Source: Acidimicrobiales bacterium (GTDB lineage Bacteria; Actinomycetota; Acidimicrobiia; Acidimicrobiales; GCA-2861595). From it: DNA of 64,000 nt. This document shows, one piece after another, positions 2,648 to 48,364 of the stretch. A model generated the notes under the pieces. That model had not been told where the DNA came from, searched no databases, and saw only the letters and a program-made list of their open reading frames with translations. The DNA lies in contig JBKJNA010000027.1 in assembly GCA_046596195.1 (NCBI GenBank), forward strand, positions 913 through 64,912, given 5' to 3'. Made by a program: the position numbers and the translations under genes. How positions within the stretch are numbered: position 1 is the stretch's first letter; every line of letters starts with the position of its first letter.

Positions 2648-3055
2648 GTGGACACCAGCGTTGCTGTCCCGCTCTTGGCGTCCTGGCACGAGAGCCACGA
2701 TCTCGTGCGCACGGCATTGCACGGGCGAGCCATGCAGATCGGTGCCCATGTGGCGATCGAGACTTTCTCGGTCCTCACCCGCCTGCCGGCGCAGAGGCGG
2801 ATCTCCCCGCCCGACGCCTGGGCACTGCTGCGGGCGGGCTTCGACGGGAGCTGGCTCACTCTGCCGGCGAACGGCCACCGGCTCCTGGTGGAACGCCTGT
2901 CCGGGGCCGGGGTGGGAGGTGGAGCCGTCTATGACGGGCTGGTGGCGGCCACGGCTGCGCACCACCATGCCCGGTTGGTCAGCCTCGACCGGCGGGCCCA
3001 GCCGGTCTACGAGCTGATGGGCGTCGAGGTCGAACTGCTCCGGGAACCGGTGTGA
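2648..3055 (+). CDS. vapC: PIN-domain ribonuclease toxin VapC
   Basis: The N-terminal VDTSV carries the first PIN acidic residue and DGLVAATA sits in the C-terminal half. The ORF is 135 aa and starts 13 nt after the antitoxin stop. Confidence 0.75.
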   Translation: MDTSVAVPLLASWHESHDLVRTALHGRAMQIGAHVAIETFSVLTRLPAQRRISPPDAWALLRAGFDGSWLTLPANGHRLLVERLSGAGVGGGAVYDGLVAATAAHHHARLVSLDRRAQPVYELMGVEVELLREPV

Positions 3056-3117: not shown

Positions 3118-3178
3118 TCGGCCCGGGTTCAGGCCCCGACCGCGTGCGCGACCGCAGCGTCGGCCCGGGTTCAGGCCC
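3118..3178. repeat. 19-bp direct repeat TCGGCCCGGGTTCAGGCCC x2 (3118-3136 and 3160-3178)
   Basis: Exact duplicate spaced 42 bp apart. The second copy contains the alr stop codon (3171-3173). Confidence 0.8.
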
Positions 3179-6453: not shown

Positions 6454-6918
6454 ATGGCTGAAGACAACGTCGACGAGGAACTCATCGACGAAGACGTAGA
6501 AGGACCCGAGGATCTCGAGGACGCCGATCTCGAGGACATGCCCGACGACGATCTCCTCGACGACGGTCTCGACGTCGCCGTCGACGAGGTCGAGCTGCCC
6601 GACATCGACGACGTGGTCGTGCCGGTGGCGCCGGTGGTCACCCCGGCCGCGTCGGACGACGACGAGGAGGAGGAGGACGACGACGAGGCCGACGAGGACG
6701 ACGTGGAGGCCAGCCTCGATGTGATCCTCAAGGAGAAACTGGTCGTCGCCGACGACGAGGACATCGAGGAGGCGGCCGACCAGGAGGATCGCGTCGAGAC
6801 CACCACCAAGGTGCTGCCCAAGCAGCCCGACGAGTTCTCCTGCCAGTCGTGCTTCCTCGTGAAGCACCCGAGCCAGTTGGCGGACGCCGAGCGCCAGCTG
6901 TGCCGGGACTGCGTGTGA
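6454..6918 (+). CDS. DUF4193 family protein (acidic N-terminus, C-terminal Cys4 knuckle)
   Basis: In-frame ATG at 6454. A D/E-rich tract is followed by FSCQSCFLVKHPSQL...LCRDCV. Confidence 0.7.
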   Translation: MAEDNVDEELIDEDVEGPEDLEDADLEDMPDDDLLDDGLDVAVDEVELPDIDDVVVPVAPVVTPAASDDDEEEEDDDEADEDDVEASLDVILKEKLVVADDEDIEEAADQEDRVETTTKVLPKQPDEFSCQSCFLVKHPSQLADAERQLCRDCV

Positions 6919-16083: not shown

Positions 16084-16210
16084 GGCCCGCACGGGCGCTG
16101 GGTCGCACGCGCCGGCGGTCGAAGCGTTCCGGACGAGCGACCGGCTGCGCCATCCGGACGGCGCCAGACGGCATCGGGAATAATGAGCACTCGACCCAGG
16201 AGGATCCCCG

Positions 16211-17047
16211 ATGCGCCGGCTCACGATGTTCCTCACCCTCCTCGCAGCGACCGCGTCGTTCGCGGTGGCCGCTCCCGTCCCCGCACACGCGGCGGTGCTC
16301 AGCGCCACGCTGGTTCCCACGCCCACTGGCCTCGGGTACTGGCTGGCCAACGCCGATGGCGGGGTCTTCGCCTACGGCGACGCCCCGTTCCTCGGATCGG
16401 CCGCCGATCTCCGCCTCAACGGCCCGGTGGTCGGGATGGCCCGCACGCCGACCGGGCAGGGCTACTGGCTGGCCACGTCGGGAGGCGGCGTCTTCGCCTA
16501 CGGCGACGCCAACTTCGTGGGATCGGTCGCGTCCATCCAGGTTTCGCAGCCCATCGTCGACATCGTGGCCACCCCCAAGGGCGACGGCTACTGGCTGGTG
16601 TCGGCTGACGGCGGCGTGATCCCGTTCGGCAAGGCCACGTTCCAGGGGTCGCTGTCGACCACCGGCATCAAGCCGACCAAGGCGGTCGTGGGCATGGCGG
16701 CGACGCCGAGCGGGAATGGATACTGGCTGGTGGGGGGCGACGGTGGCGTCTACGCCTACGGCGACGCACGCTTCGTGGGATCGACCGGCGCCCTCCGCCT
16801 GAACCGGCCCGTGGTCGGCATGGCCCGCACGCCGAGCGGCGCCGGCTACTGGCTGGTGGCGTCCGACGGGGGCGTCTTCGCCTTCGGCGACGCCCGTTTC
16901 GCCGGCTCCACCGGGGCGATCCGGCTGAACCAGCCGGTCCTGCGTATGGCGCCCACGCCCTCGGGCGCCGGCTACCTGCTGGTGGCCTCGGACGGCGGCG
17001 TCTTCGCCTTCGGCGACGCCCGCTTCGTGGGGTCCCCCGCCGCCTGA
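16211..17047 (+). CDS. Secreted repeat protein with six ~42-aa GYWLV..DGGVFAFGDA.F.GS blades (putative beta-propeller)
   Basis: Signal peptide, then 6 tandem repeats. AGGAGG sits 7 nt upstream of the ATG. Confidence 0.75.
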   Translation: MRRLTMFLTLLAATASFAVAAPVPAHAAVLSATLVPTPTGLGYWLANADGGVFAYGDAPFLGSAADLRLNGPVVGMARTPTGQGYWLATSGGGVFAYGDANFVGSVASIQVSQPIVDIVATPKGDGYWLVSADGGVIPFGKATFQGSLSTTGIKPTKAVVGMAATPSGNGYWLVGGDGGVYAYGDARFVGSTGALRLNRPVVGMARTPSGAGYWLVASDGGVFAFGDARFAGSTGAIRLNQPVLRMAPTPSGAGYLLVASDGGVFAFGDARFVGSPAA

Positions 17048-22427: not shown

Positions 22428-23618
22428 GTGGTAGGCCATTCGTCCATGGACTGCCCGTTGCGCTTCGGCGTCTTCCTCGCACCCTTCCACGCCGTGGGCC
22501 AGAACCCCACCCTGGCCCTCCAGCGCGACCTCGACCTGCTCGAGCACCTCGACAGGCTGGGCTACGACGAGGCATGGGTGGGCGAGCACCACTCGGCCGG
22601 TTGGGAGCTGATCGCGTCGCCCGAGGTGTTCCTGGCCGCCGCCGCCGGCCGCACCAGCCGCATCTCCCTCGGCACCGGCGTCAGCTCGCTCCCGTACCAC
22701 CACCCCTTTCTGCTGGCCGACCGCATGGTCCTGCTCGACCACCTCACCCGGGGTCGGGTGAAGTTCGGCGTGGGTCCCGGCGCCCTGCCGTCGGACGCCT
22801 TCATGCTCGGCATCGCCCCCGAGCGCCAGCGGGAGATGATGGAGGAGTCGCTGGAGGCCATCCTCGCCCTGCTCACCAGCGACGAGCCGGTGAGCCGCAC
22901 GACCGACTGGTTCACCCTGCGCGACGCCCGGCTCCAGCTCCGTCCCTACCAGCAGCCGTGCTTCGAGGTGGCGGTGGCGGCCCAGATCTCACCCGCAGGC
23001 CCCCGAGCGGCGGGCCGCTTCGGCGCCGGCCTGCTGTCCATCGGCGCCACCAGCCTGGGCGGCTTCGACGCCCTCGGCTCGCACTGGCAGGTGGCCGAGG
23101 AACGGGCCGCCAGGTTCGGCCAGACCATGGACCGCAGCCGGTGGCGCCTGGTCGGCCCGATGCACGTGGCCGAGACCGAGGCACAGGCCCGGGCCGACGT
23201 GGAGCACGGGCTGGCCGACTGGGTCCGCTACTTCCGCGAGGTCGCCGCCCTCCAGCTGGCCCCCTCCACCGACGATGCCGGCGAGCTGGTCGACGCCATG
23301 AACGCCAGTGGCTTCGCCGTCATCGGCACACCGGACATGGCGGCCGCCCAGATCGAGCGCCTGGCCGAGCGCTCCGGCGGCTTCGGCGCCTACCTGGTCA
23401 TGGCGCAGGAGTGGGCCGACCCGACCGCCACCCGCCGCTCCTACGAGCTCATCGCCCAAGAGGTGTTCCCCCGCTTCCAGGGCACGGCCGCACGCGCCGT
23501 CGCCTCGCGGGACTGGGCGGCCGAGCACCGGCCCGAATTCATCGGCGCCGCCGGCGCGGCGGTGATGAAGGCGGTCCAGGACCACCACGCCGAGCACGAC
23601 CCGCTTTCGAGTAAATAG
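22428..23618 (+). CDS. LLM-class (luciferase-like) flavin-dependent oxidoreductase
   Basis: Contains RFGVFLAPFH...LGYDEAWVGEHHS, the typical LLM N-terminus; 396 aa. Confidence 0.75.
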   Translation: MVGHSSMDCPLRFGVFLAPFHAVGQNPTLALQRDLDLLEHLDRLGYDEAWVGEHHSAGWELIASPEVFLAAAAGRTSRISLGTGVSSLPYHHPFLLADRMVLLDHLTRGRVKFGVGPGALPSDAFMLGIAPERQREMMEESLEAILALLTSDEPVSRTTDWFTLRDARLQLRPYQQPCFEVAVAAQISPAGPRAAGRFGAGLLSIGATSLGGFDALGSHWQVAEERAARFGQTMDRSRWRLVGPMHVAETEAQARADVEHGLADWVRYFREVAALQLAPSTDDAGELVDAMNASGFAVIGTPDMAAAQIERLAERSGGFGAYLVMAQEWADPTATRRSYELIAQEVFPRFQGTAARAVASRDWAAEHRPEFIGAAGAAVMKAVQDHHAEHDPLSSK

Positions 23619-23646
23619 CCACCGGAATTCGGTGGCTATTTACTCG
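23608..23646. terminator. Palindromic hairpin element, copy 2 (bidirectional terminator-like)
   Basis: CGAGTAAATAGCCACCG-gaatt-CGGTGGCTATTTACTCG is a perfect 17-bp stem. The TAG stops of both convergent genes (23616-23618 and 23636-23638) lie in its arms. Confidence 0.7.
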
Positions 23647-25228
23647 GGAGTGGGGGTCGGGGGCGGGCGTCCCAGGTCGGGATGAGGTGGCGGGCGGCGC
23701 GGGCCTCGTCGACCCGGCCGACCGGCGTGGACCGGGGGGCGGCGGACGCGCCTTCGGGGTCGGCGGCGATGCGCTCGAGGGCCTGGGCCAGGGCCTCCAT
23801 GGTCTGGGGGCTCTCGGTCTCGGTGGGCTCGATCATGAGCGCCTCCTCCACGATGAGGGGAAAGTAGACGGTTGGGGCGTGGAAGCCCTCCTCCAGGAGG
23901 CGCTTGGCCACGTCGACCGCCTTGAGGCCGGCGGCGCGCTTGAGCGACGCCGCCGATGCCACGAACTCGTGCATGCCGGGGCGGTCGTAGGGGATGTCGT
24001 AGGTACCCCGCAGCCGGTGGCGCAGCCAGTTGGCGTTGAGCACCGCCGCCTCGGCCACCTTGCGCAGGCCGTCGCCGCCGTTGGCCAGGATGTACGAGTA
24101 CGCCCGGGCGAGGGCGAGGGCGTTGCCGTGCCACGAGTGGACCCGCCCGATCGACCTCGCCGGCGTCACCCACCCCCACGCACCGTCGTCGCCCATCACC
24201 GGCACCGGGCCGGGCAGGTAGGGCGCCAGCCGTTCGGAGACGGCAACAGGGCCGGCGCCGGGCCCGCCGCCGCCATGGGGCACGGCGAAGGTCTTGTGCA
24301 GGTTCATGTGCACGATGTCGAAGCCCATGTCGCCCGGCCGGGTGACGCCGAGGATGGCGTTGAGGTTGGCGCCGTCGTAGTACAGGAGACCGCCCACCTC
24401 GTGGACGGCGGCCGCGATCTCGGCGATATCCTCCTCGAACAGGCCGAGAGTGTTGGGGTTGGTGAGCATGATCCCCGCCACGTCGTCGTCGAGGCGGTCG
24501 CGCAGGGCCGCCACGTCGACGCAACCTCTGGCGTCTGACGGCACGGTAACGGTGGTGTAGCCGCCGAGGGTGACCGATGCCGGGTTGGTGCCGTGGGCCG
24601 AGTCGGGGATGATCACCTTGGTGCGCTGGCGCCCCTGGTCACGGTGCCAGGCCCGCATGAGCAGCAGCCCGGTGAGCTCGCCCGCCGCGCCCGCCGGCGG
24701 CTGGAGCGTGGCGGCATGCATGCCCGTGACGGCGCACAGGCGGGCGGCCAGATCGGCCAGCACCTCCATCCAGCCCTGGGTGAGGTTGGCCGGGGCCGAC
24801 GGATGGGCGCCGGCCAGGCCGGCCAGCGACGCCGCGTCGTCGCACAGCTTGGGGTTGTACTTCATGGTGCACGACCCGAGGGGGTAGGCCCCGAGGTCGA
24901 CCGAGTACTGCCGGGCGCTCAGCCGGGTGACGTGGCCCACCAGGTCGCGCTCGGACACCTCGGGCAGCGCCAGCGGCTCCGGTCGGAGGTGACCGGCCGG
25001 CACCAGCTCCTCCGCCGTCCACTCGGGGACGCCCGTGGTACGGAACGACCACGCCGACCGTCCCGGGGACGAAAGCTCGAAGACGGTGGGCTCCTCGGCC
25101 CGCCCCATGATCGGGGCGCTCAGGGCCCGCCCGCCGGGGGCGCCCCCCGTCTGTGCCTTCTCCCCGGCCGGGGCCCCATCCCCGGCCTCCTCGCCGAGCG
25201 GGGTCCCCATCCCCGCCGGCGCCGTCAT
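23636..25228 (-). CDS. gcvPB: Glycine dehydrogenase (aminomethyl-transferring) subunit 2
   Basis: Contains FHAPTVYFP, HMNLHKTF (PLP lysine) and DSAHGTNPAS. The ATG overlaps the gcvPA stop as ATGA. Confidence 0.9.
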   Translation of the reverse strand: MTAPAGMGTPLGEEAGDGAPAGEKAQTGGAPGGRALSAPIMGRAEEPTVFELSSPGRSAWSFRTTGVPEWTAEELVPAGHLRPEPLALPEVSERDLVGHVTRLSARQYSVDLGAYPLGSCTMKYNPKLCDDAASLAGLAGAHPSAPANLTQGWMEVLADLAARLCAVTGMHAATLQPPAGAAGELTGLLLMRAWHRDQGRQRTKVIIPDSAHGTNPASVTLGGYTTVTVPSDARGCVDVAALRDRLDDDVAGIMLTNPNTLGLFEEDIAEIAAAVHEVGGLLYYDGANLNAILGVTRPGDMGFDIVHMNLHKTFAVPHGGGGPGAGPVAVSERLAPYLPGPVPVMGDDGAWGWVTPARSIGRVHSWHGNALALARAYSYILANGGDGLRKVAEAAVLNANWLRHRLRGTYDIPYDRPGMHEFVASAASLKRAAGLKAVDVAKRLLEEGFHAPTVYFPLIVEEALMIEPTETESPQTMEALAQALERIAADPEGASAAPRSTPVGRVDEARAARHLIPTWDARPRPPLPSK

Positions 25229-36444: not shown

Positions 36445-38328
36445 TTGTCTGGACTCGCCACGAAAGGCTTCCTCCTCATGCGCATGACGCCTCCTCCCGG
36501 ACGGCCGGGGCCCGAGCGGAACAAGAGCCGCAACACGCGTTTGCAGATGGTCGGCATCGGGGTCCTGTTCGCGCTGGTCCTGGCCCTGCTGTTCAATCTC
36601 CCCGGTGGCTCAACCTCCAAGGAGGACACGCCCGAGGTCACGCTGTCAGGCGCCGTGCAGGCCATCAAGGAGGGAAAGGTCGCCCGCCTCCACCTGAACG
36701 ACGGCTCCCGGCGGGCCACGCTGCTCCTGTCCAACGGCACCGAGGTCCAGACGGCCTACCCCGTGGGTTCGGGCCCGGAACTCAGCACCACCGCCATCGA
36801 GGCCGACGTCAAGGTTACCGCGGCGCCGAACAAAGCCAGCTCCCCGTGGATGAGCCTGCTTTTCACCCTCCTCCCCGTCGCCCTCCTCATCGCCTTCTTC
36901 GTCTTCTTCATGGGCCCCAAGATGGGCATGAACGTGGGCAAGATGCACAAGTCGCGCCGGGCACCCATCGATGTGCCCGAGACCCGCTTCAGCGACGTGG
37001 CCGGATCCGACGAGGCCGTCTCCGAACTGGCCGAGGTCGTCGAGTTCCTCAACACCCCCGAGCGCTTCATCAACGCCGGAGCGCGCATGCCCAACGGTGT
37101 GCTGCTGGTCGGCCCCCCCGGCACCGGCAAGACCCTTCTCGCCCGGGCCGTGGCCGGCGAGGCGGGCGTGCCCTTCTTCGCCCTGTCGGGCTCCGACTTC
37201 GTGGAGACCTTCGTCGGCGTCGGCGCCTCCCGCGTGCGCCAGGTGTTCACTGCCGCCCGCAAGCTCGGCAGCGCCATCATCTTCATCGACGAGATCGACG
37301 CCGTGGGCAAGGCCCGATCGTCCCAGTCGAGCGGGAGCGGCAACGAGGAGCGGGAGAACACGCTCAACCAGTTGCTGGTGGAGATGGACGGGTTCAGCGA
37401 GTCCGGCATCATCGTGCTCGCCGCCACCAACCGGGCCGACGTGCTCGACGCCGCCCTCACCCGGCCGGGCCGCTTCGACCGGCACATCACCGTCCCCGCC
37501 CCCGACCGGGTGGGCCGCACCAAGATCCTGGAGCTCTACGCCCGCAACCGCCGCTTCTCGCGTGACGTCGACTTCGTCTCGCTGGCCCGGCGCACGCCCG
37601 GTCTCACCGGCGCCGACCTGTCGTCCCTGATGAACGAGGCCGCCCTCGAGGCGGCCCGCCACGGCTCCGGCGAGATCACCAACGCCCACCTCCAGGCCGC
37701 CCTGTCCACCTCGTACATGGGCCGGGCCCGCACGTCGGCCGTCGTCACCGAGCGCGACCGACGCATCACCGCCTGGCACGAGGCCGGCCACGCCGTGGCG
37801 GCCATGCTGCTGCCCCACGCCGACGACCCCGTCTCCGTCACCATTGTCCCCCGGGGCGTGGCCGGCGGCGTCACCTGGATGGGCGGCAACGACAACTCGT
37901 TCCTCACCCGCTCCGAGGCCGAGGCCCGCCTGGTGGTCGCCATGGCCGGCCGGGCCGCCGAGGAGTACCACCTCGACGGCGACTACACCCAGGGGGCGGC
38001 CAGCGACTTCGCCTCGGCCACCGCCCTCGCCACGTCGATGGTCACCGAGTTCGGCATGAGCCCCCTCGGCCCCACCACCCGGTCCAGCTACGGCCACATC
38101 GGCGGCGCCCAGGCCGACCGGGTCGGCGAGGCGGTCGATACCCTCCTCGACCAGGCCATCACCGACGCCCGGAACCTGGTCGCCGACAACTTGCAGCTGC
38201 TCGAAGCCCTCGTTCGCGAGCTCCTGGTAGAGGAGACGGTGAGTGGCCAGGAGCTCTCGGTCCTGGCCGACTGCCTAGGCGACCGCCCGGCCCCGGTTTA
38301 CGCCACGGAGCTGCACCAGCTCCCCTGA
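36445..38328 (+). CDS. ftsH: ATP-dependent zinc metalloprotease FtsH
   Basis: Contains GPPGTGKTLLA, IIFIDEIDA, the SRH region and the Zn site HEAGHAV. TTG start at 36445; alternative ATG at 36478. Confidence 0.9.
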   Translation: MSGLATKGFLLMRMTPPPGRPGPERNKSRNTRLQMVGIGVLFALVLALLFNLPGGSTSKEDTPEVTLSGAVQAIKEGKVARLHLNDGSRRATLLLSNGTEVQTAYPVGSGPELSTTAIEADVKVTAAPNKASSPWMSLLFTLLPVALLIAFFVFFMGPKMGMNVGKMHKSRRAPIDVPETRFSDVAGSDEAVSELAEVVEFLNTPERFINAGARMPNGVLLVGPPGTGKTLLARAVAGEAGVPFFALSGSDFVETFVGVGASRVRQVFTAARKLGSAIIFIDEIDAVGKARSSQSSGSGNEERENTLNQLLVEMDGFSESGIIVLAATNRADVLDAALTRPGRFDRHITVPAPDRVGRTKILELYARNRRFSRDVDFVSLARRTPGLTGADLSSLMNEAALEAARHGSGEITNAHLQAALSTSYMGRARTSAVVTERDRRITAWHEAGHAVAAMLLPHADDPVSVTIVPRGVAGGVTWMGGNDNSFLTRSEAEARLVVAMAGRAAEEYHLDGDYTQGAASDFASATALATSMVTEFGMSPLGPTTRSSYGHIGGAQADRVGEAVDTLLDQAITDARNLVADNLQLLEALVRELLVEETVSGQELSVLADCLGDRPAPVYATELHQLP

Positions 38329-38337
38329 TCCCTGTTT

Positions 38338-38376
38338 CGAGGAAATAGCCACCGGAATCCGGTGGCTATTTCCTCG
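38338..38376. terminator. Palindromic hairpin element, copy 3
   Basis: CGAGGAAATAGCCACCGG-aat-CCGGTGGCTATTTCCTCG is a perfect 18-bp stem between convergent ftsH and trpA. Confidence 0.7.
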
Positions 38377-38393
38377 GAAGCGCCTGCGGTGGC

Positions 38394-39185
38394 CTAGCCG
38401 GCGTCCAGGGCAGCCCTGAACCCGGCCACCGTCGAACCGATCTGGTCGGGCGAGGCGCCGTCGATCAACCGGCGCATGAGGGCGGAGGCGACGACGACGC
38501 CGTCCGCCTCCGCACACGCCTCCACCGCGTGGGCGGGCGTGGAGATGCCGAAGCCGAGGAGGACGGGCTTGTCGGTGTGGGCCTTGAGGCGCTTGGCCAT
38601 GACGCCGGCCGAAGCGGCCAGACGCTGGCGCTCCCCCGTGATGCCCATGGCGCTCACGCCGTACACGAACCCCTGCGAGCGCTCGCAGATGAGGGCCAGG
38701 CGGTCGTCGGGGGTGACGGGCGCCGCCAGCAGCACTGTCTCGACGCCCTCCGACTCGGCGGCCCGGGCCCACGGGTCGAGCTCCTCCAGCGGGATGTCCG
38801 GCACGATGGCCCCGGACACGCCGTTGCCGGAAAGGGCGTGGGCGAAACGGCGGTGGCCGCCCCGGTAGACGATGTTGTAATAGGTCATCGCCACAAGCGG
38901 CACGCCGGCGTCGACGGCGCCCACGGCGTCGAGGATGGCCGTCGGCGTGGCCCCCAGCTCCAGCGCCTTCTGCGACGCCTCCTGGATGGTGGGGCCGTCC
39001 ATCACCGGGTCCGAGAAGGGGATCCCCACCTCGATGGCGTCGGCCCCCGCCGCCGCCATGGCCTCCAGGACCTCGGTCCACCGGGGCCCGAGCCCGCCGG
39101 TCACATAGGGCACGAGCAGCTTGGCACCGGCCGCCCGCCGCTCGCGCAGGTGGCGCTCCAAGAAGCCCGGCTCGGGCACGCTCAC
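38394..39185 (-). CDS. trpA: Tryptophan synthase alpha chain
   Basis: Contains LVPYVTGG...GADAIEVGIPFSDPVMDGPTIQ. GTG at 39185 is preceded by GGTGGAGG; the rest of ORF 38394..39689 is non-coding read-through. Confidence 0.85.
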   Translation of the reverse strand: MSVPEPGFLERHLRERRAAGAKLLVPYVTGGLGPRWTEVLEAMAAAGADAIEVGIPFSDPVMDGPTIQEASQKALELGATPTAILDAVGAVDAGVPLVAMTYYNIVYRGGHRRFAHALSGNGVSGAIVPDIPLEELDPWARAAESEGVETVLLAAPVTPDDRLALICERSQGFVYGVSAMGITGERQRLAASAGVMAKRLKAHTDKPVLLGFGISTPAHAVEACAEADGVVVASALMRRLIDGASPDQIGSTVAGFRAALDAG

Positions 39186-42786: not shown

Positions 42787-44166
42787 ATGCGCCGCCGCCT
42801 CACCCTCACCATCGTTGGCCTCGTGGCGGCCGCCCTGGTGGTGGCCGGCCTGGGTACCCTCGTACTGGCCCGGGTGGGGGCGCGCAACGAGACGAGGTCC
42901 GACCTGGAGGACCAGGCCATGGCCCTGGCCGACGTGGCCGACGGGCTCCAGCGGCCCCCGGTGCTGACCGCTCTGCGGCGATCGTTGCGGCTCGAGGGCG
43001 CCGACATCGTGCCGGTAGGCCCCGTCCTCGCCGGACGGAACGGGCGCGGATCTCTGCACCCGCCCGCAGCGCCACTGGTCGGCGGCGCCGTCCTGACCGA
43101 GTCGGAGCTCGAGCTGCTGCACAGCGGCACGGCCGTGGTGTCCGGCTGGCGCGGCGACACGGCCTACGCCGCCGCGCCCGTGCATCGGGGCGGCGAGATA
43201 CGCGTGGCCGTCCTGCTCACCCGGAAGCAGTCGTCGGGCCTGGGCACCGCCTTGCCATGGTTCCTGCTGTCGGCTGGCACCGCGCTGGTGGCGGCGGCGG
43301 TGGCGGCCGACCGGCTGGCCCGCCGGTTCATCCGGCCGGTGGCGGCCGCGGCCGACGCGGCCCGGCGCATTGCGGCGGGCGACCTGGCCGTACGGGTCGA
43401 GGCGGCCGGCCCCGGCGCGGAGGCGGAGCTGGCCCGCCTGGCCACGTCCGTCAACGCCATGGCCACCGAGCTGGAGCGGGCCCGGGGCCTCGAGCGCCAG
43501 TTCCTGCTGTCCGTGTCCCACGAGCTGCGCACGCCCCTCACGTCGGTGCGGGGCTTCGCCGAGGCCATCGCCGACGGCGCCGCGCCCGACACAAGGCGGG
43601 CGGCCGAGGTCATCGGGTCGGAGGCCCGCCGGCTGGAGCGCCTGGTGGCCGACCTGCTGGACCTGGCCAAGCTGGACGCCCGGTCCTTCTCGCTCCACAT
43701 GGAGCCGGTCGACGTGGCCGCCGTCGTGGTCGACACAGCCGAGGGCTTCCGGCCGGCGGCCGATGCCGCCGGCCTCTCACTCGACGTGCGCGTCGACGGG
43801 GGCAACAGCGGTTCGCCCGTGTTGCTGGCGATGGCCGATCCGGAGCGCCTGGCCCAGGTGGTGGCCAACCTGGTCGAGAATGCCCTGAAGTTCGCCGCCC
43901 GGCACATCACCGTCACCGCCGGCAGCGAGGACGGCCAGGTCGTGCTGGCGGTCTCCGACGACGGCGCCGGCATCGCCGAGGCCGACCGGGACCACGTGTT
44001 CGACCGCCTCTTCCAGTCGAGCCGAACCCCGGCCCGCCAGGCCGGCTCGGGGCTCGGGCTCACCATCGTGGCCGAGCTGGCGTCGGCCATGGGTGCAGGC
44101 GTCGACGCCCAGTCGGTGCCCGGCGCCACCCGCATGGTGGTCCGCCTCCGGGCGCCCGGGCCCTGA
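42787..44166 (+). CDS. Sensor histidine kinase (2 TM, HAMP, HisKA, HATPase_c)
   Basis: H-box SVSHELRTPLTSVRGF, N-box NLVENALKF, and G-boxes DDGAGI and GSGLGL. Confidence 0.85.
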   Translation: MRRRLTLTIVGLVAAALVVAGLGTLVLARVGARNETRSDLEDQAMALADVADGLQRPPVLTALRRSLRLEGADIVPVGPVLAGRNGRGSLHPPAAPLVGGAVLTESELELLHSGTAVVSGWRGDTAYAAAPVHRGGEIRVAVLLTRKQSSGLGTALPWFLLSAGTALVAAAVAADRLARRFIRPVAAAADAARRIAAGDLAVRVEAAGPGAEAELARLATSVNAMATELERARGLERQFLLSVSHELRTPLTSVRGFAEAIADGAAPDTRRAAEVIGSEARRLERLVADLLDLAKLDARSFSLHMEPVDVAAVVVDTAEGFRPAADAAGLSLDVRVDGGNSGSPVLLAMADPERLAQVVANLVENALKFAARHITVTAGSEDGQVVLAVSDDGAGIAEADRDHVFDRLFQSSRTPARQAGSGLGLTIVAELASAMGAGVDAQSVPGATRMVVRLRAPGP

Positions 44167-44174
44167 GGGGCGAC

Positions 44175-45227
44175 TCAGGGCTTTCGGGTGGTCGTGGTGG
44201 TTACCGGTCTCGTGGTGGGGACGGTCGTGACGGCCGGACCGGTGGTGGTGGTCACCGGTCTGGTGGTGGGGGCGGTGGTGACGGCCGGACGGGTGGTCGT
44301 GGTCACCGGGCTGGTCGTGGGGGTGGTGGAGCCGGGAGGGCGGCTCGTCGTGGCGCCCGGGACAGTCGAGGCGACCGGCGCCGTGGTGACCGGCGTCGGC
44401 GGGTCGGCGCATGCCGGCAACGCCAGCTGGAACTGTTCGGCGCCATTGACGACGAGCCGCAAGGCCTGCACCCCGACGCCCTGGCAGGTCAGCTCCCAGC
44501 GGGCCCGTCCGGTGGCATCGGTCACCGTGGGGTTCGCCAGACCGACGCTCCAGCCCGACCCGCCCGCCAGCTCCACGGTGGCGCCCGCCATGGCCACACC
44601 GTTCACCACCCCGCCCGGGTCGACCGAGCGGTTGCTCAGCTGCAGGACCAGGTTGCTGGTCCCGCCCACGACCGGCGGGTTGGGCGCAATCGCCGGCTGC
44701 GGCGTGGTGCCGAAGTTGCGCTCCAGCTTCAGATCCACCGAATAGGTCTCCGTCGCTCCGACGAAGAAGAAGGCGGGGACGGCGATGGCGATGTCAGGCA
44801 CCCGCCACGCCCGGACCCGGTAGCCGCCGCCGAGCACGTTCTGGGCCGACCAGCTGCCGTCGGGGGCCGAGGCCACGTCGATGCCGGCGACCGACCTGCC
44901 CACCAACCGCTCCACCCGGATCGTTGCGCCGTCCACCGGAGTGCCGTCCGGCCCGACCACCGTGCCCTTGATGGTGCCCTTGCCCGGCCCCACCACCACG
45001 GTGGTCATGGTGGCCCGCCCGGCGGGCACGGCCGGCAGGGCCACCCCGGTGAAGTCCGGCGGGGAGGTGGTGGACGGCCGGGCCTGCGTGCTGGGCGGCG
45101 GCGGCAGCGGGTCGAGAGCGACGTCGCCGCCCGAGCACGCGGCCAGGAGGGCAGCGACCGCCAGTGCGGCCACCACCGACCGCAGCGTGCCACGGGCGCC
45201 GACGGCGGCGCCCGCCGGGCCGAGCAC
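44175..45227 (-). CDS. Lipoprotein with a carboxypeptidase-regulatory-like domain and a Thr/Pro-rich repeat tail
   Basis: Lipobox ALLAACSGG. GTIKGTVVGPDGTPVDGATIRVE is CarboxypepD_reg-like. The C-terminus is (PVTTTTxPAVTTxPTTR)n. Start GTG 45227 lies within the long ORF 44175..46931. Confidence 0.65.
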   Translation of the reverse strand: MLGPAGAAVGARGTLRSVVAALAVAALLAACSGGDVALDPLPPPPSTQARPSTTSPPDFTGVALPAVPAGRATMTTVVVGPGKGTIKGTVVGPDGTPVDGATIRVERLVGRSVAGIDVASAPDGSWSAQNVLGGGYRVRAWRVPDIAIAVPAFFFVGATETYSVDLKLERNFGTTPQPAIAPNPPVVGGTSNLVLQLSNRSVDPGGVVNGVAMAGATVELAGGSGWSVGLANPTVTDATGRARWELTCQGVGVQALRLVVNGAEQFQLALPACADPPTPVTTAPVASTVPGATTSRPPGSTTPTTSPVTTTTRPAVTTAPTTRPVTTTTGPAVTTVPTTRPVTTTTTRKP

Positions 45228-46235: not shown

Positions 46236-46796
46236 ATGAAGTCCGCGCAGCTCACCGGCCGGCTCCTCGTGGCGACGCCCATCCTGGGCGACCCCAACTT
46301 CGACCGCACCGTCGTGCTCCTCCTCGAACACTCCGAGGAGGGGGCGGTCGGCCTCGTGTTGAACCGCCCGAGCAAGACCGAGGTGGCCGAACCGCTGCCT
46401 GAGTGGGACGAGGTGACGGCCGTGCCGTCGGTGATCTTCGTGGGCGGGCCCGTATCGCAGTCGGCGGTCATCGGCCTGGCCCGCTGCGACAGCGGCGCCA
46501 GCTCCGCCGCCGGCTGGCGGGCGGTGGGCGGGGGCATCGCCATCGTCGACCTCACCGACGCCGCCCCGGACGCAGCCGCACCCATCGAGGCGCTCCGCCT
46601 CTTCGCCGGCTACGCCGGCTGGGGCCCGTTCCAGCTGGAGGCGGAGATCGACGCCGGCGCCTGGTGGGTGGTCGACGCCAGCCCCGACGACGCCCTCAGC
46701 CCTGACCCCGAGGGCCTGTGGTCCGCCGTCCTGCGCCGCCAGCGAGGCCGAGTGGCCATCCACGCCTTCTTCCCCGACGACCCCTCGTCCAACTGA
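46236..46796 (+). CDS. YqgE/AlgH family protein (UPF0301)
   Basis: Contains LTGRLLVATPILGDPNFDRTVVLLLEHSEEGAVGLVLNRPS. The ORF opens at 46197; GAGGGAGAA favours a start at 46233 or 46236. Confidence 0.8.
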   Translation: MKSAQLTGRLLVATPILGDPNFDRTVVLLLEHSEEGAVGLVLNRPSKTEVAEPLPEWDEVTAVPSVIFVGGPVSQSAVIGLARCDSGASSAAGWRAVGGGIAIVDLTDAAPDAAAPIEALRLFAGYAGWGPFQLEAEIDAGAWWVVDASPDDALSPDPEGLWSAVLRRQRGRVAIHAFFPDDPSSN

Positions 46797-46800
46797 CCGT

Positions 46801-46847
46801 TCCCGAGTAAATAGCCACCGGATTCCGGTGGCCCTATTTACTCGGGA
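46801..46847. terminator. Palindromic hairpin element, copy 4 (2-nt bulge)
   Basis: TCCCGAGTAAATAGCCACCGG-att-CCGGTGGC(cc)CTATTTACTCGGGA. The trpE TAA stop (46838-46840) lies in the right arm. Confidence 0.7.
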
Positions 46848-48364
46848 GTGCGGAGGTTGGCGGCGCGGGCGGCGGTCATGCGGCGGGCGGCGGGGACGGC
46901 GGCGAGGAGGGCGGCCGCCTTGTTGCAGCACTCCAGGTCCTCCATGGCGGGGTCGCTGTCGGCCACGATGCCGGCGCCCGCCTGGACGCTGGCCTTCCCG
47001 GCCGGGGTGACGAGCATGGTGCGGATGGCGATGGCGGTGTCGAGGTTGCCGGAGAAGTCGACGTAGCCCACCACGCCGGCGTACGGGCCGCGCTTGGTGG
47101 GCTCCAGCTCGTCGATGATCTCCATGGCCTTGACCTTGGGGGCGCCCGACACCGTGCCCGCCGGCAGGGTGGCCCGCAGCACGTCGATCGGGCCGAGACC
47201 TGGAGCCAGCCGGCCCGACACCTGCGAGCTGAGGTGCATGACGTGGCTGTAGCGCTCGAGGGTGAGCAGTTCGTCGACCTGCTCGGTGCCGAAGCGCACC
47301 ACCCGCCCCACGTCGTTGCGGGCCAGGTCGACCAGCATCACGTGCTCGGCCAGCTCCTTGGGGTGCTCGCGCAGCTCGCCGGCCAGCCGGCGGTCCTCCT
47401 CGTCGGTGCGGCCCCGGCGGCGGGTGCCGGCGATGGGCCGCGACACGACCCGGTCGCCCAGCAGCTGCACCATGGGCTCGGGTGACGAGCCCACCACGGT
47501 GACGGCCGGATGGCGCAGGAAGTACATGTACGGCGACGGGTTCACCTGGCGCAGCGCCCGGTACACGTCGAAGGGGTCGGCGCCGAGGTCGAGGTCGAAC
47601 CGCATCGACAGCACGACCTGGAAGATGTCGCCGTCGAGGATGCGCTCCTTGGCCGCCGCCACCGCCCGGGCGTAGTCCGCAGCGCTCACCGTGCGGGTGA
47701 CGTCGGGCGGCGGCTCGTCGCGCTCGGGCGGTTCCACCACCGGCTCGTCGAGGGGACGGGCGCCGTCGGCCGCCAGCCGGTCGAGGCGGGCCTCGGCGTC
47801 GTCGTAGAGGGCGTCGATGTCGTCAGCCGACGCGTCCGGGGGGACGAAGGCGTTGGCGATCAGGGTGACCCGCTGGCGCCAGTGGTCGTAGGCGGCGATC
47901 TCCCCCACCACCGACAGCACGGCGTCGGGATGGCCCAGGTCGTCGGGCGGGACGTCGGGCAGGCGCTCGACCTCGCGCGCCACGTCGTAGCCCAGGTAGC
48001 CGACCACACCGCCGTGCAGCGGTGGCAGGTCGGGCACCGGCGGCGAGTGGTAGGCGGCCAGCAGCCCCTCGAGAGCGGCCAGCACGCCCCGGTCGAGGGC
48101 CACGCCGGCGGGCACGCCGTTGTCGGCCTCTATGCGCCCGCCCCGGGCCACCAGGGTGGTCGACGGGTTGCGGCCGACGAACGACCACCGGCTCCAGCGC
48201 TCGCCGTGCTCCACCGACTCGAACAGGAACCCGGCGCCGTCGCCCACCACCCGTAGGAACCCGGCCACTGGCGTGGTGAGGTCGCCCAGGATCTCCCGCC
48301 ACACCGGCACCACGGGGGCGCTACGGGTTAGGGCGCGGAAGTCGTCCCTACTGGGGCGGGGCAC
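46838..48364 (-). CDS. trpE: Anthranilate synthase component I
   Basis: Contains [18 protein letters not shown]-type [19 protein letters not shown], and [10 protein letters not shown]. Confidence 0.95.

Follow-up and report, generated by a model that had tools for sequence, protein, structure and literature searches.

To our knowledge, how transcripts end in high-GC actinobacteria, which do without canonical terminators, is a standing question. One conserved candidate motif is the mycobacterial TRIT (Gardner et al. 2011), for which 147 palindromic, mostly bidirectional copies were described, starting at about −8 relative to stop codons, and whose sequence conservation led its authors to infer additional machinery as well (PMC3152330). 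Few of the 3′ ends mapped by Term-seq in Mycobacterium tuberculosis are overlapped by TRITs. Mycobacterial RNA polymerase is reported to need a free U-tract (PMC3993855), and in E. coli terminators lying a few bases past a stop codon are repressed by the ribosome (PMC4824070). Among dispersed repeats, mixed REPIN types occupy 13 of 20 conserved extragenic spaces (bioRxiv 10.1101/2024.10.14.618302), SPRITE and in-frame RPEs offer precedents (PMC10969869), and inverted pairs of DUS and USS occur within terminators of Neisseria and Pasteurellaceae (PMC1852404).

We investigated four palindromes in a window of 64,000 nucleotides (the whole stretch of DNA that was analysed). Compared across public genomes, they are members of a previously uncurated, lineage-restricted family of short hairpin repeats in uncultured, high-GC, Acidimicrobiia-like actinobacteria. 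We read this family, with a probability of roughly 0.6, as a short copied palindromic element of the REP, mycobacterial TRIT or pneumococcal SPRITE kind, kept at transcript ends. The copies, and the stop codons that lie in their arms, are as follows.

Positions 3–57 (conserved unit 11–49), no strand: copy 1, with the minor core type AGCGCCA-gaa-TGGCGCT and two arm mismatches.
Positions 23600–23654 (conserved unit 23608–23646), no strand: copy 2, CGAGTAAATAG-CCACCGGAATTCGGTGG-CTATTTACTCG.
Positions 23616–23618, + strand: the oxidoreductase gene ends here on TAG, within the left arm of copy 2 (tail ...PLSSK-stop).
Positions 23636–23638, − strand: TAG stop of gcvPB, read as CTA within the right arm of copy 2 (tail ...PPLPSK-stop).
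Positions 38330–38384 (conserved unit 38338–38376), no strand: copy 3, with G-type arms CGAGGAAATAG…CTATTTCCTCG and core CCACCGG-aat-CCGGTGG.
Positions 46796–46852 (conserved unit 46804–46844), no strand: copy 4, with core CCACCGG-att-CCGGTGG and a 2-nt CC bulge.
Positions 46838–46840, − strand: TAA stop of trpE, read as TTA within the right arm of copy 4 (tail ...LRTPE-stop).

All four palindromes, with their letters, are present where a sequence-only reading of this DNA had placed them, and the neighbouring genes are those it had named (Bac_luciferase with GcvPB, FtsH with TrpA, and DUF179, or YqgE, with TrpE). Its unit bounds needed redrawing: the sites are real, but what is conserved is the 39-nt unit given above for each copy. 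Copies 2–4 do lie between convergent genes, but copy 1 sits at a co-directional junction, with a Thy1-domain gene downstream. Copy 2 makes up the entire gap of the convergent pair formed by the luciferase-like oxidoreductase gene and gcvPB, and both genes do stop inside its arms, as had been claimed (TAG at 23616–23618 on the + strand, CTA at 23636–23638 for the − strand); the trpE stop, likewise placed in a right arm, is the TTA at 46838–46840. Copy 3 is flanked by convergent ftsH (stop 38326–38328) and trpA (stop 38394–38396), and copy 4 by trpE and a convergent yqgE-like gene (DUF179, stop 46794–46796).

A covariance model trained on 104 members of the family found exactly four sites in the window, at 54–67 bits, with copies 1 to 4 scoring 58, 67.5, 66 and 57 bits; the next match, of 16 bits at 6523–6567, is a coding acidic repeat and was rejected as a fifth copy. 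Each copy is predicted to fold, on both strands, into a single long hairpin (−34 to −47 kcal/mol, z −5.9 to −11.3; −46.7 and −37.9 kcal/mol for copy 2). With at most two mismatches, AAATAGCCACCGG matched six times in the window against 0.44 expected, a count reached in 0 of 100 shuffles; CGAGKAAATAG, with at most one mismatch, matched eight times against 0.21 expected, all eight inside the four elements; and AAATAG-N8-38-CTATTT matched three times against 0.00 expected. The 39-nt core palindrome did not occur in shuffled sequence. No tRNA or tmRNA was found in the window, 87% of which is covered by rough GC3-based gene calls.

The element has constant arms around a variable core hairpin. The arms, CGAG[G/T]AAATAG…CTATTT[A/C]CTCG, or more fully (y)yyCGAG[G/T]AAATAG … CTATTT[A/C]CTCGrr(r), enclose a 17-nt hairpin with a G/C-rich 7-bp stem and a 3-nt loop, and the palindrome often reaches about 55 nt (CCCACTCCCGAG…CTCGGGAGTGGG); part of the arm conservation seen across MAGs comes from the search pattern, which fixed the arms. 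The core is bordered by ATAG to its left and CTAT to its right, which are invariant and mutually paired, and the length of the element is exactly 39 nt in 106 of the 112 matches listed. The arms are the sole A/T-rich island in a 72% GC genome, and hold TAA and TAG stop codons in two reading frames per strand. Each of the seven core pairs shows 2–5 pair types, six of them being paired in at least 93% of copies and the loop-closing pair in 90%; the K/M position of the arm, left free in the search pattern, pairs in 99 of 104 copies. Covariation scored 0.374, compared with 0.158 for shuffles and at most 0.108 with partners slid.

Half-arm matches fell within full elements in 220 of 225 cases, the other five being degenerate or truncated copies, which indicates that the whole palindrome is the unit; AAATAG/CTATTT hexamers (234 in 807 kb) are nearly all within elements. 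No empty arm-only sites (AAATAGCTATTT) were found in the clade, which counts against the core being a cassette inserted into a pre-existing arm palindrome. The sequence-only reading had taken a shared 18-nt stem as the dispersed repeat; the repeat family stands, but its arms are the conserved part and the stem is a variable, genome-specific module.

The public genome scan returned at least 107 further copies in 12 related Acidimicrobiia/Actinomycetota MAGs of 70–76% GC, bearing out the dispersed repeat family that had been proposed, and at least 110 stretches matched the pattern in genome contigs overall. SAR125 has at least 24 copies and nzgw85 at least 20, and the window holds four in 64 kb; a pattern search for the window's own stem, suggested earlier as a check, returned nine further loci, all in one metagenome. 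Relatives whose gcvPB is 79–84% identical (L111 and L112; 42 kb) had no copies. Viral contigs gave no matches, and a phage origin was rejected on that ground. In Rfam, which has no TRIT model, nothing reached the gathering score, and a permissive search gave generic hairpin and miRNA-like matches far below threshold. Five pattern matches outside the clade (Bryobacterales, Anaerolineales, Clostridium, Buchananbacteria and a proteobacterium) were treated as unrelated because their lengths differ and the surrounding DNA is low in GC, and because about three chance matches are expected in 596 Gb of random sequence (hand estimate).

The family is strongly tied to gene ends. Among 98 classifiable copies, 57 lie at convergent (58%), 38 at tandem (about 39%) and three at divergent junctions (3%), compared with 20.5% convergent and 19% divergent among background junctions (p = 4e-16 and 3e-6, respectively), and most fall within −11 to +20 nt of a stop codon. 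The 158 adjacent gene 3′ ends include 24 on the arm TAG and 31 on the arm TAA (35%), with a further 94 at 0–30 nt; stop offsets of −7 or −11 account for 55 of 158, with the recurrent C-terminal tails ...[LV][PS][SR]K-stop and ...PE-stop or ...FE-stop. At co-directional junctions the next start codon lies less than 20 nt from some copies, and within about 10 nt in some instances (9 nt in one case). Where a native stop has been lost or overwritten, the arms would supply a stop codon within 2–4 codons. The proposed origin of the SK tails in the element agreed with the homologues: a ...PSK ending occurs in 0 of 120 GcvPB homologues, and at an orthologous junction without the element the genes end in ...MGWTP-stop and ...PPLAN-stop, versus ...SLSSK-stop and ...LPVPE-stop.

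We then compared core versions between genomes. CTCGCCA is the core in 18 of the 24 copies listed for SAR125 and GGTGTC[A/G] in 17 of the 20 listed for nzgw85, GTCACCG occurs in N_bin.10 and M3-S, GCCACGG in BP_98, and CCACCGG in three of the four window copies. At orthologous sites with flanks 83–97% identical, the arms stay and the core is swapped, as seen in 20 cross-genome pairs and at one site in four genomes (L011, L081, L056 and L095). The window and nzgw85 differ in core at two of three shared sites, with flanks 92–95% identical. Copy 1 keeps its AGCGCCA core in MAG nzgw85 (L064:2244); the sites orthologous to copies 2 and 4 carry GGTGTCA (L097:2638 and L080:2608), the latter site having CCACCGG on metagenome contig L113; and the SAR125 orthologue of copy 3 (L077:443) carries CTCGCCA. 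Since the window's core version is common to a more distant population (83–87% identical, nine loci), it is the nzgw85 lineage that was swept recently.

These alignments indicate homogenisation of the core stem within each genome towards that genome's own version, even at ancestrally inherited sites. Most likely this would occur by ectopic conversion among copies through the 11–20 nt of identical arm, which palindrome breakage and repair, or a hairpin-specific enzyme, might promote. Constant arms with a replaced core make an unusually clean case of concerted evolution, involving about 100 dispersed 17-nt segments, and argue for an active or breakage-driven copying process. A possible, though doubtful, extension is that the core stem is the recognition code of a fast-evolving trans-acting factor, so that a change of specificity would be followed by copy-replacement rewriting around a hundred gene-end hairpins in place. 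Candidate factors would be a hairpin-specific nuclease or transposase, or a sequence-specific termination or processing factor that binds RNA hairpins; arms and sites would be left untouched, over a time span of about 5–8% sequence divergence. If true, a terminator-like repeat would here be undergoing a homing-like exchange of cassettes across the genome.

Comparison of orthologous loci shows that copies arise through insertion or copy-replacement, based on filled versus empty junctions (L066 versus L069; L043 versus L042) and on an in-frame insert of 51 nt in dnaE2. The latter copy (L108:2498–2536) corresponds to a clean 51-nt gap (17 aa) in the closest homologue, with CTCGAA at both junctions; this hexamer is also the element's own arm end, and may therefore reflect microhomology, not duplication. 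In-frame copies are about three of at least 107. A third orthologous junction holds an unrelated GC hairpin in BP_99, which suggests an equivalent role. With E. coli TnpArep (the same sequence as PDB 4ER8) and an approximate IS608 TnpA sequence as queries, tblastn returned no RAYT/IS200-like gene across about 0.9 Mb of loci anchored on elements, the matches to PolA and a serine protease being spurious; similarly, no transposase gene adjoined copies at the loci inspected. The genes between the two closest copy pairs inspected (L100 and L023) were rejected as transposases; their products are a DUF559 protein, a protein of 355 aa that by eye resembles caspases, and TadA (likewise assigned by eye).

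That copies persist almost exclusively where a gene ends suggests a function. The transcribed hairpin would fix the 3′ terminus of one converging transcript or of both, either as a partial intrinsic terminator, in which an 8-bp GC stem is followed by UAUUUAC and the upstream A-tract gives the same geometry on the other strand, or alternatively as a barrier to 3′-exonucleases. A stable G/C-rich RNA hairpin is present (the seven core pairs, extended by the G-C pair between TAG and CUA), and UAUUUACU, in which five of 8 nt are U, directly follows the 8-bp inner stem. Folding prediction pairs this U-rich segment with the upstream A-tract and continues the helix through CGAG/CUCG, so that no free U-tail would be left; furthermore, with stops inside the 5′ arm, the terminating ribosome would cover the hairpin. 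A simple consensus terminator scan did not call the element sites of the window. The symmetric bidirectional intrinsic terminator put forward by the sequence-only reading is probably too simple a description, given the paired U segment, the silent scan and the copies that cannot be strong terminators because they are co-directional (about 39%), precede a start codon by 9 nt, or lie within a gene (dnaE2). We consider that the element is probably retained as a two-way transcript-end hairpin, and that termination by it is plausible, strong termination everywhere being impossible. At the 38 tandem junctions, a comparison of RNA with DNA level gave 38 G-U and 139 non-standard (mismatched) cells in sense versus 32 and 145 in antisense, and loop orientation at co-directional junctions was AAA in 11 versus TTT in five; neither difference was significant. 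A promoter reading was rejected, with no sigma-70-like sites and, by eye, no arm TANNNT −10 hexamer usefully spaced from downstream starts.

A purely selfish REP/MITE-like element, with gene-end positions reflecting tolerated insertions and arm stops limiting damage in the last codons, would fit the signs of insertion (orthologous sites filled in one genome and empty in another, and the in-frame insert) and the avoidance of divergent, promoter-bearing spacers, which purifying selection alone would yield; copy 1 even appears to decay in a neutral-like manner, with three differences per 39 nt from its nzgw85 orthologue, similar to the flanks. We nevertheless find this unlikely. Sites remain occupied in four genomes despite flanks down to 83–89% identity, in a compact genome (87% of the window coding, by rough calls) where elements form essentially the whole convergent spacer and 35% of neighbour genes need their stop, and an unrelated hairpin holds the same junction in a genome that has no element at that site. 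That BP_99 hairpin is equally what a host-evolved bidirectional intrinsic terminator cassette, used again at many operon ends, would lead one to expect, its similarity being kept by termination selection alone with no mobility, as are a GC stem with A-tract and T-tract on both strands, the strong enrichment at convergent gene ends, and sites kept at orthologous junctions with flanks 83–89% identical. Such a cassette leaves too much unexplained to be other than improbable: the invariant arm bases in 12 MAGs and constant 39 nt (106 of 112 listed), whole-core replacement between genomes 92–95% identical, the in-frame dnaE2 insert, and copies 9 nt ahead of a co-directional start codon; its U-tract is moreover paired in the predicted fold.

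Perfect symmetry, strictly constant spacing, the lack of strand asymmetry and half-sites that change in parallel per genome could also describe a DNA-level site, that is, a palindrome bound or cleaved by a dimeric protein, or a cruciform between converging units, with the core tracking protein specificity. E. coli REP/BIME elements bind gyrase and IHF, and candidate proteins here would be a nucleoid protein, a topoisomerase or a recombinase. This appears very improbable, since the spacer is always self-complementary up to the 3-nt loop although half-sites need no such thing, the loop flips orientation freely, genes really use the arm stop codons, and no candidate protein was found. Finally, a conserved oligomer in gene-end hairpins with lineage-specific variants resembles DUS/USS, as if DNA-uptake-like signals had been paired by chance in terminators, cf. 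Neisseria and Pasteurellaceae; uptake sequences, however, are mostly single and also intragenic, whereas here half-arms lie in full palindromes (220 of 225) with no free singletons, and neither module has additional copies in the window. We rejected this model, to which we give almost no credence. The copied element kept at transcript ends is the reading we carry forward.

TRIT is still unexplained, and an analogous element in a second, unrelated lineage turns it into a comparative, testable question: the natural variants differ in the stem alone, and the A/U-rich module stands out from the 72% GC background. For annotation, the arms give a stop and 2–5 C-terminal residues to about one third of neighbour genes, and 17 residues inside a protein are possible. 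Furthermore, the core version could be used as a per-genome barcode for binning MAGs of this clade.

Compared with known systems, the element shares with DUS/USS one oligomer reused in the stems of many terminators and species-level variants, but uptake signals are mostly genome-wide singletons and the element has none. Like the RPE of Rickettsia, it is palindromic and can add a peptide by in-frame insertion (cf. the 17-aa DnaE2 insert), but RPEs are about 150 bp and frequently intragenic, whereas here the normal site is a gene end, with about three in-frame copies of at least 107. SPRITE is likewise a dispersed repeat resembling an intrinsic terminator, in an unrelated low-GC host and with an unrelated sequence, and symmetry, stop donation and a genome-specific core are not described for it. 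Set beside a MITE, the whole element is here one inverted repeat. TRIT, whose own support as a terminator is weak, is also a sequence-conserved palindromic hairpin of Actinobacteria, mostly bidirectional and numbering of the order of a hundred in each genome, and is similarly tied to gene termini, beginning inside the CDS (about −8 for TRIT, −7 and −11 here). By description, which is how the two were compared, TRIT differs in being reported as Mycobacterium-restricted, while the present hosts are Acidimicrobiia-like MAGs; two-module architecture, a genome-specific core and orthologous-site replacement are not described for it.

REP/REPIN elements are, like this family, short multi-copy extragenic palindromes at 3′ ends and between convergent genes, and those of E. 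coli are reportedly often near stop codons, as Liang, Rudd and Deutscher are said to have described in 2015. Both have a conserved short head beside a variable, lineage-specific hairpin, and in both differing types can occupy the same orthologous extragenic space of related strains. The unpaired GT[AG]G head of REPs is absent here, its place being taken by base-paired ATAG/CTAT on both sides, and the copies are perfect single palindromes, not imperfect doublets, with one adjacent pair (L085:1242–1296 and 1313–1367). What is exchanged in the present family is the 17-nt core alone, not the whole element.

We located four palindromes in the window, where the sequence-only reading had placed them, and the gene names and stop codons it had assigned there proved correct:

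11-49, core of the copy beside a Thy1-domain gene
23608-23646, core of the copy between a luciferase-like oxidoreductase gene and gcvPB
38338-38376, core of the copy between ftsH and trpA
46804-46844, core of the copy between a yqgE-like gene and trpE

Because the window is 71–74% GC throughout, its AAATAG/CTATTT islands are conspicuous. Element modules were over-represented against dinucleotide-preserving shuffles (6 vs 0.44, 8 vs 0.21 and 3 vs 0.00 for three patterns), with no shuffle reaching the observed counts, and either strand of each copy was predicted to form one long hairpin (−34 to −47 kcal/mol, z −5.9 to −11.3). A covariance model built from 104 family members recovered these four sites at 54–67 bits and no others; the next match and only weak extra (6480-6620, 16 bits) codes for an acidic Asp/Glu-rich repeat and is no element. 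The gene-end palindrome is real and non-random.

The window holds other repeats and hairpins. An unrelated hairpin at 44150-44195, GCCCTGAG-gggcga-CTCAGGGC followed by TTTCGGG (−32.1 kcal/mol, z −4.0), bridges the 8-nt gap that separates two other convergent genes, overlapping the stop codon of each; like the element it places stops within a hairpin at gene ends, but it lies outside the element family. The 18-mer CGGCCCGGGTTCAGGCCC, which occurs twice, ~50 nt apart (3118-3178), in a 115-nt convergent spacer whose flanking genes end at 3055 and 3171, may be a different small repeat. In a secreted protein (16205-17047) a ~40-residue unit, GYWLV..DGGVFAFGDA.F.GS, is repeated about six times; paralogues or orthologues at several element-bearing loci (L076, L094, L010 and L090) produce many offset BLAST matches.

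We searched 185,579 species, each represented by one genome, with the pattern CGAGKAAATAG-N8-30-CTATTTMCTCG, which returned at least 110 stretches. Twelve related MAGs labelled Acidimicrobiia, Acidimicrobiales or Actinomycetota (70–76% GC) hold 107 of the matches listed, bearing out the earlier inference of a dispersed repeat family, and the exact 39-nt length occurs in 106 of the 112 listed. Five off-clade matches among those listed (L015, L030, L050, L057 and L082, from Bryobacterales, Anaerolineales, Clostridium, Buchananbacteria and a proteobacterium) are palindromic too, but differ in length and come from low-GC DNA; roughly as many would be expected by chance, and they were treated as chance. 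The counts are minimum values: the MAG SAR125 has at least 24 copies and nzgw85 at least 20, alongside the 4 of the 64-kb window, whose DNA is 89–95% identical to nzgw85 contigs and ~82% to SAR125. The element was absent from 42 kb of two relatives with GcvPB 79–84% identical and from the viral contigs searched, and the Rfam search gave no matching family. The family is new and uncurated, and of a known general kind.

Alignment of the copies revealed invariant arms, CGAG-K-AAATAG and CTATTT-M-CTCG, whose conservation between MAGs is partly built in by the search pattern, around a 17-nt core in which a 7-bp stem closes a 3-nt loop; pairing frequently extends outward beyond the arms (CCCACTCCCGAG…CTCGGGAGTGGG or TTTCGAG…CTCGAAA). 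At the K/M position, left free by the pattern, 63 copies have a T-A pair and 36 a G-C pair, and only 5 are unpaired. Two to five pair types occur at every one of the seven core pairs, pairing is at least 93% at six of them and 90% at the loop-closing pair, and the covariation score of 0.374 compares with 0.158 for shuffles and no more than 0.108 with partners slid. Orthologues with conserved arms exist for all four window sites. Across 807 kb, 220 of 225 half-arm matches lay inside full elements, nearly every AAATAG/CTATTT hexamer of element-bearing genomes sat in an element, and arm-only empty sites were not found; the whole palindrome is the unit. Within genomes, a structure-aware model added only about 8 slightly degenerate copies in 708 kb. 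The MAG SMAG_U10959 differs in its outer flank (GAGGTCGAGG…CCTCGACCTC) and has imperfect cores and the sole adjacent pair of copies seen (L085:1242-1296 and 1313-1367).

Genes were called with our own GC3-based caller, for which start codons are rough and stop codons unambiguous. The 98 classifiable copies lay at 57 convergent, 38 co-directional and 3 divergent junctions, against background junctions that are convergent in 20.5% of cases (p = 4e-16) and divergent in 19% (p = 3e-6). Among 158 adjacent gene 3′ ends, 94 fell 0–30 nt upstream of the element, and the stop codon was the arm TAG in 24 and the arm TAA in 31; because neighbouring genes stop on the arms, unrelated proteins share recurrent tails, …[LV][PS][SR]K or …PE/FE before the stop. 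A check of C-terminal tails, which the sequence-only reading had proposed, found …PSK in 0 of 120 GcvPB homologues, most of which end …PTWDAR(P), so the window GcvPB tail RPPLPSK is element-derived.

Filled and empty sites could be compared directly. At one convergent junction the two genes end …NQSLSSK and …NLPVPE in nzgw85 (filled), and …MGWTP and …GFDTSAPPSRADTWPPLAN in SAR125 (empty). A co-directional nzgw85 junction has a 56-nt spacer that is nearly all element, with the next start codon 9 nt on; the orthologous junction in CP_BM_ER_R9_26 is empty, with a 29-nt spacer. In dnaE2 (error-prone DNA polymerase) of nzgw85, the reading frame runs through a complete element bearing that genome's core (L108:2498-2536, contig JAHFUS010000010.1), which contributes 17 residues (…HSRVNRVSKRHPIYS…) to a loop that varies naturally; CTCGAA stands at both junctions, and the closest homologue, L122 (79% identical DNA), shows a clean gap of 51 nt at exactly this position. 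The reading frame also continues through two further copies, whose G-type arms lack the TAA frame. The convergent junction orthologous to the element-bearing nzgw85 junction L084 carries, in the MAG BP_99 (L053:6826-6870), an unrelated GC-only hairpin, TTCGAG-CGTGCCCG-cga-CGGGCACG-CTCG, which has the outer CGAG/CTCG in common with the element and lacks the A/T module. This suggests that the element stands in functionally for an ordinary hairpin at a gene end, and the GC-only hairpin could be its ancestral or precursor state.

The element core is homogenised within each genome, with the following dominant stems:

SAR125, CTCGCCA, 18 of 24 copies listed
nzgw85, GGTGTC[A/G], 17 of 20 copies listed
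N_bin.10, GTCACCG, 8 of 13 copies listed
M3-S, GTCACCG, 4 of 5 copies listed
BP_98, GCCACGG, 6 of 15 copies listed
SC-S62, GGCCCGG, 3 of 3 copies listed
window, CCACCGG, 3 of 4 copies

Matching by flanks gave 20 cross-genome orthologous pairs of copies. One junction holds three different cores across four genomes (flanks 83–97% identical); of the three sites shared by the window and nzgw85, two have wholly different cores (flanks 92–95% identical) and the third keeps the minor core AGCGCCA in both; and the loop is flipped, AAA vs TTT, between genomes with 96–97% identical flanks. The window-stem search proposed from sequence alone matched nine separate loci, every one from a single metagenome, which are 83–87% identical to the window in overlaps and take in two sites of the window itself; CCACCGG is therefore common to the window and a more distant relative. 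In the closer relative, nzgw85, GGTGTCR is accompanied by relict copies with CCACCGG and NNCGCCA, and this lineage must have rewritten most sites recently. Such replacement cannot be reached by point mutation and calls for information transfer between copies or repeated re-insertion. The unusual property is this modular design, with the core rewritten genome-wide while arms and sites persist. Ectopic conversion via the identical 11–20-nt arms, perhaps triggered by palindrome breakage, would be the simplest mechanism, and enzyme-driven homogenisation the more novel alternative; a RAYT-like gene was not found in ~0.9 Mb of fragments. In BP_98, a 302-aa DUF559 (restriction-endonuclease-like) gene lies between two elements ~1 kb apart (L100:6248-7274), of which one is slightly degenerate. 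Actinobacteria commonly carry DUF559 genes, and we found no evidence for this one as an element partner.

The element is a copied, palindromic, structurally constrained repeat, kept at gene ends, where it donates stop codons. Its transcribed hairpin would mark transcript 3′ ends in both directions, and the symmetric bidirectional intrinsic terminator of the sequence-only reading is plausible, given an 8-bp GC stem followed by UAUUUAC and a matching A-tract that lets the opposite strand present the same arrangement; that reading cannot be a complete account. The U-tract, reported necessary for mycobacterial RNA polymerase (PMC3993855), is base-paired in the predicted fold, and the E. coli ribosome represses terminators a few bases past the stop codon (PMC4824070), both counting against strong termination. 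So do a simple terminator scan, which does not call the element sites, the 39% of copies within co-directional gene pairs, the one intragenic copy, and the few mapped M. tuberculosis 3′ ends that overlap TRITs. A partial terminator and/or a 3′-exonuclease barrier, a role proposed for REPs, would fit all of these facts. Copies showed no wobble or loop asymmetry relative to transcription direction, a comparison that does not separate RNA- from DNA-level roles.

Among known systems, DUS/USS in terminators (PMC1852404) were ruled out by the lack of singletons in 807 kb. The closest analogue is the mycobacterial TRIT, described as actinobacterial, palindromic, bidirectional, present in ~147 copies and starting ~−8 of stop codons, with sequence conservation unexplained (PMC3152330); host range argues against membership. 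The GT[AG]G head and doublet organisation of REP/REPIN-RAYT systems were absent and a RAYT was not found in the ~0.9 Mb searched, but the logic of a conserved head with a lineage-specific hairpin is common to both, and REPINs, like the element, show mixed types at orthologous spaces (bioRxiv 10.1101/2024.10.14.618302). Pneumococcal SPRITEs indicate that mobility is possible for terminator-like repeats, and Rickettsia RPEs provide a precedent for in-frame insertion (PMC10969869).
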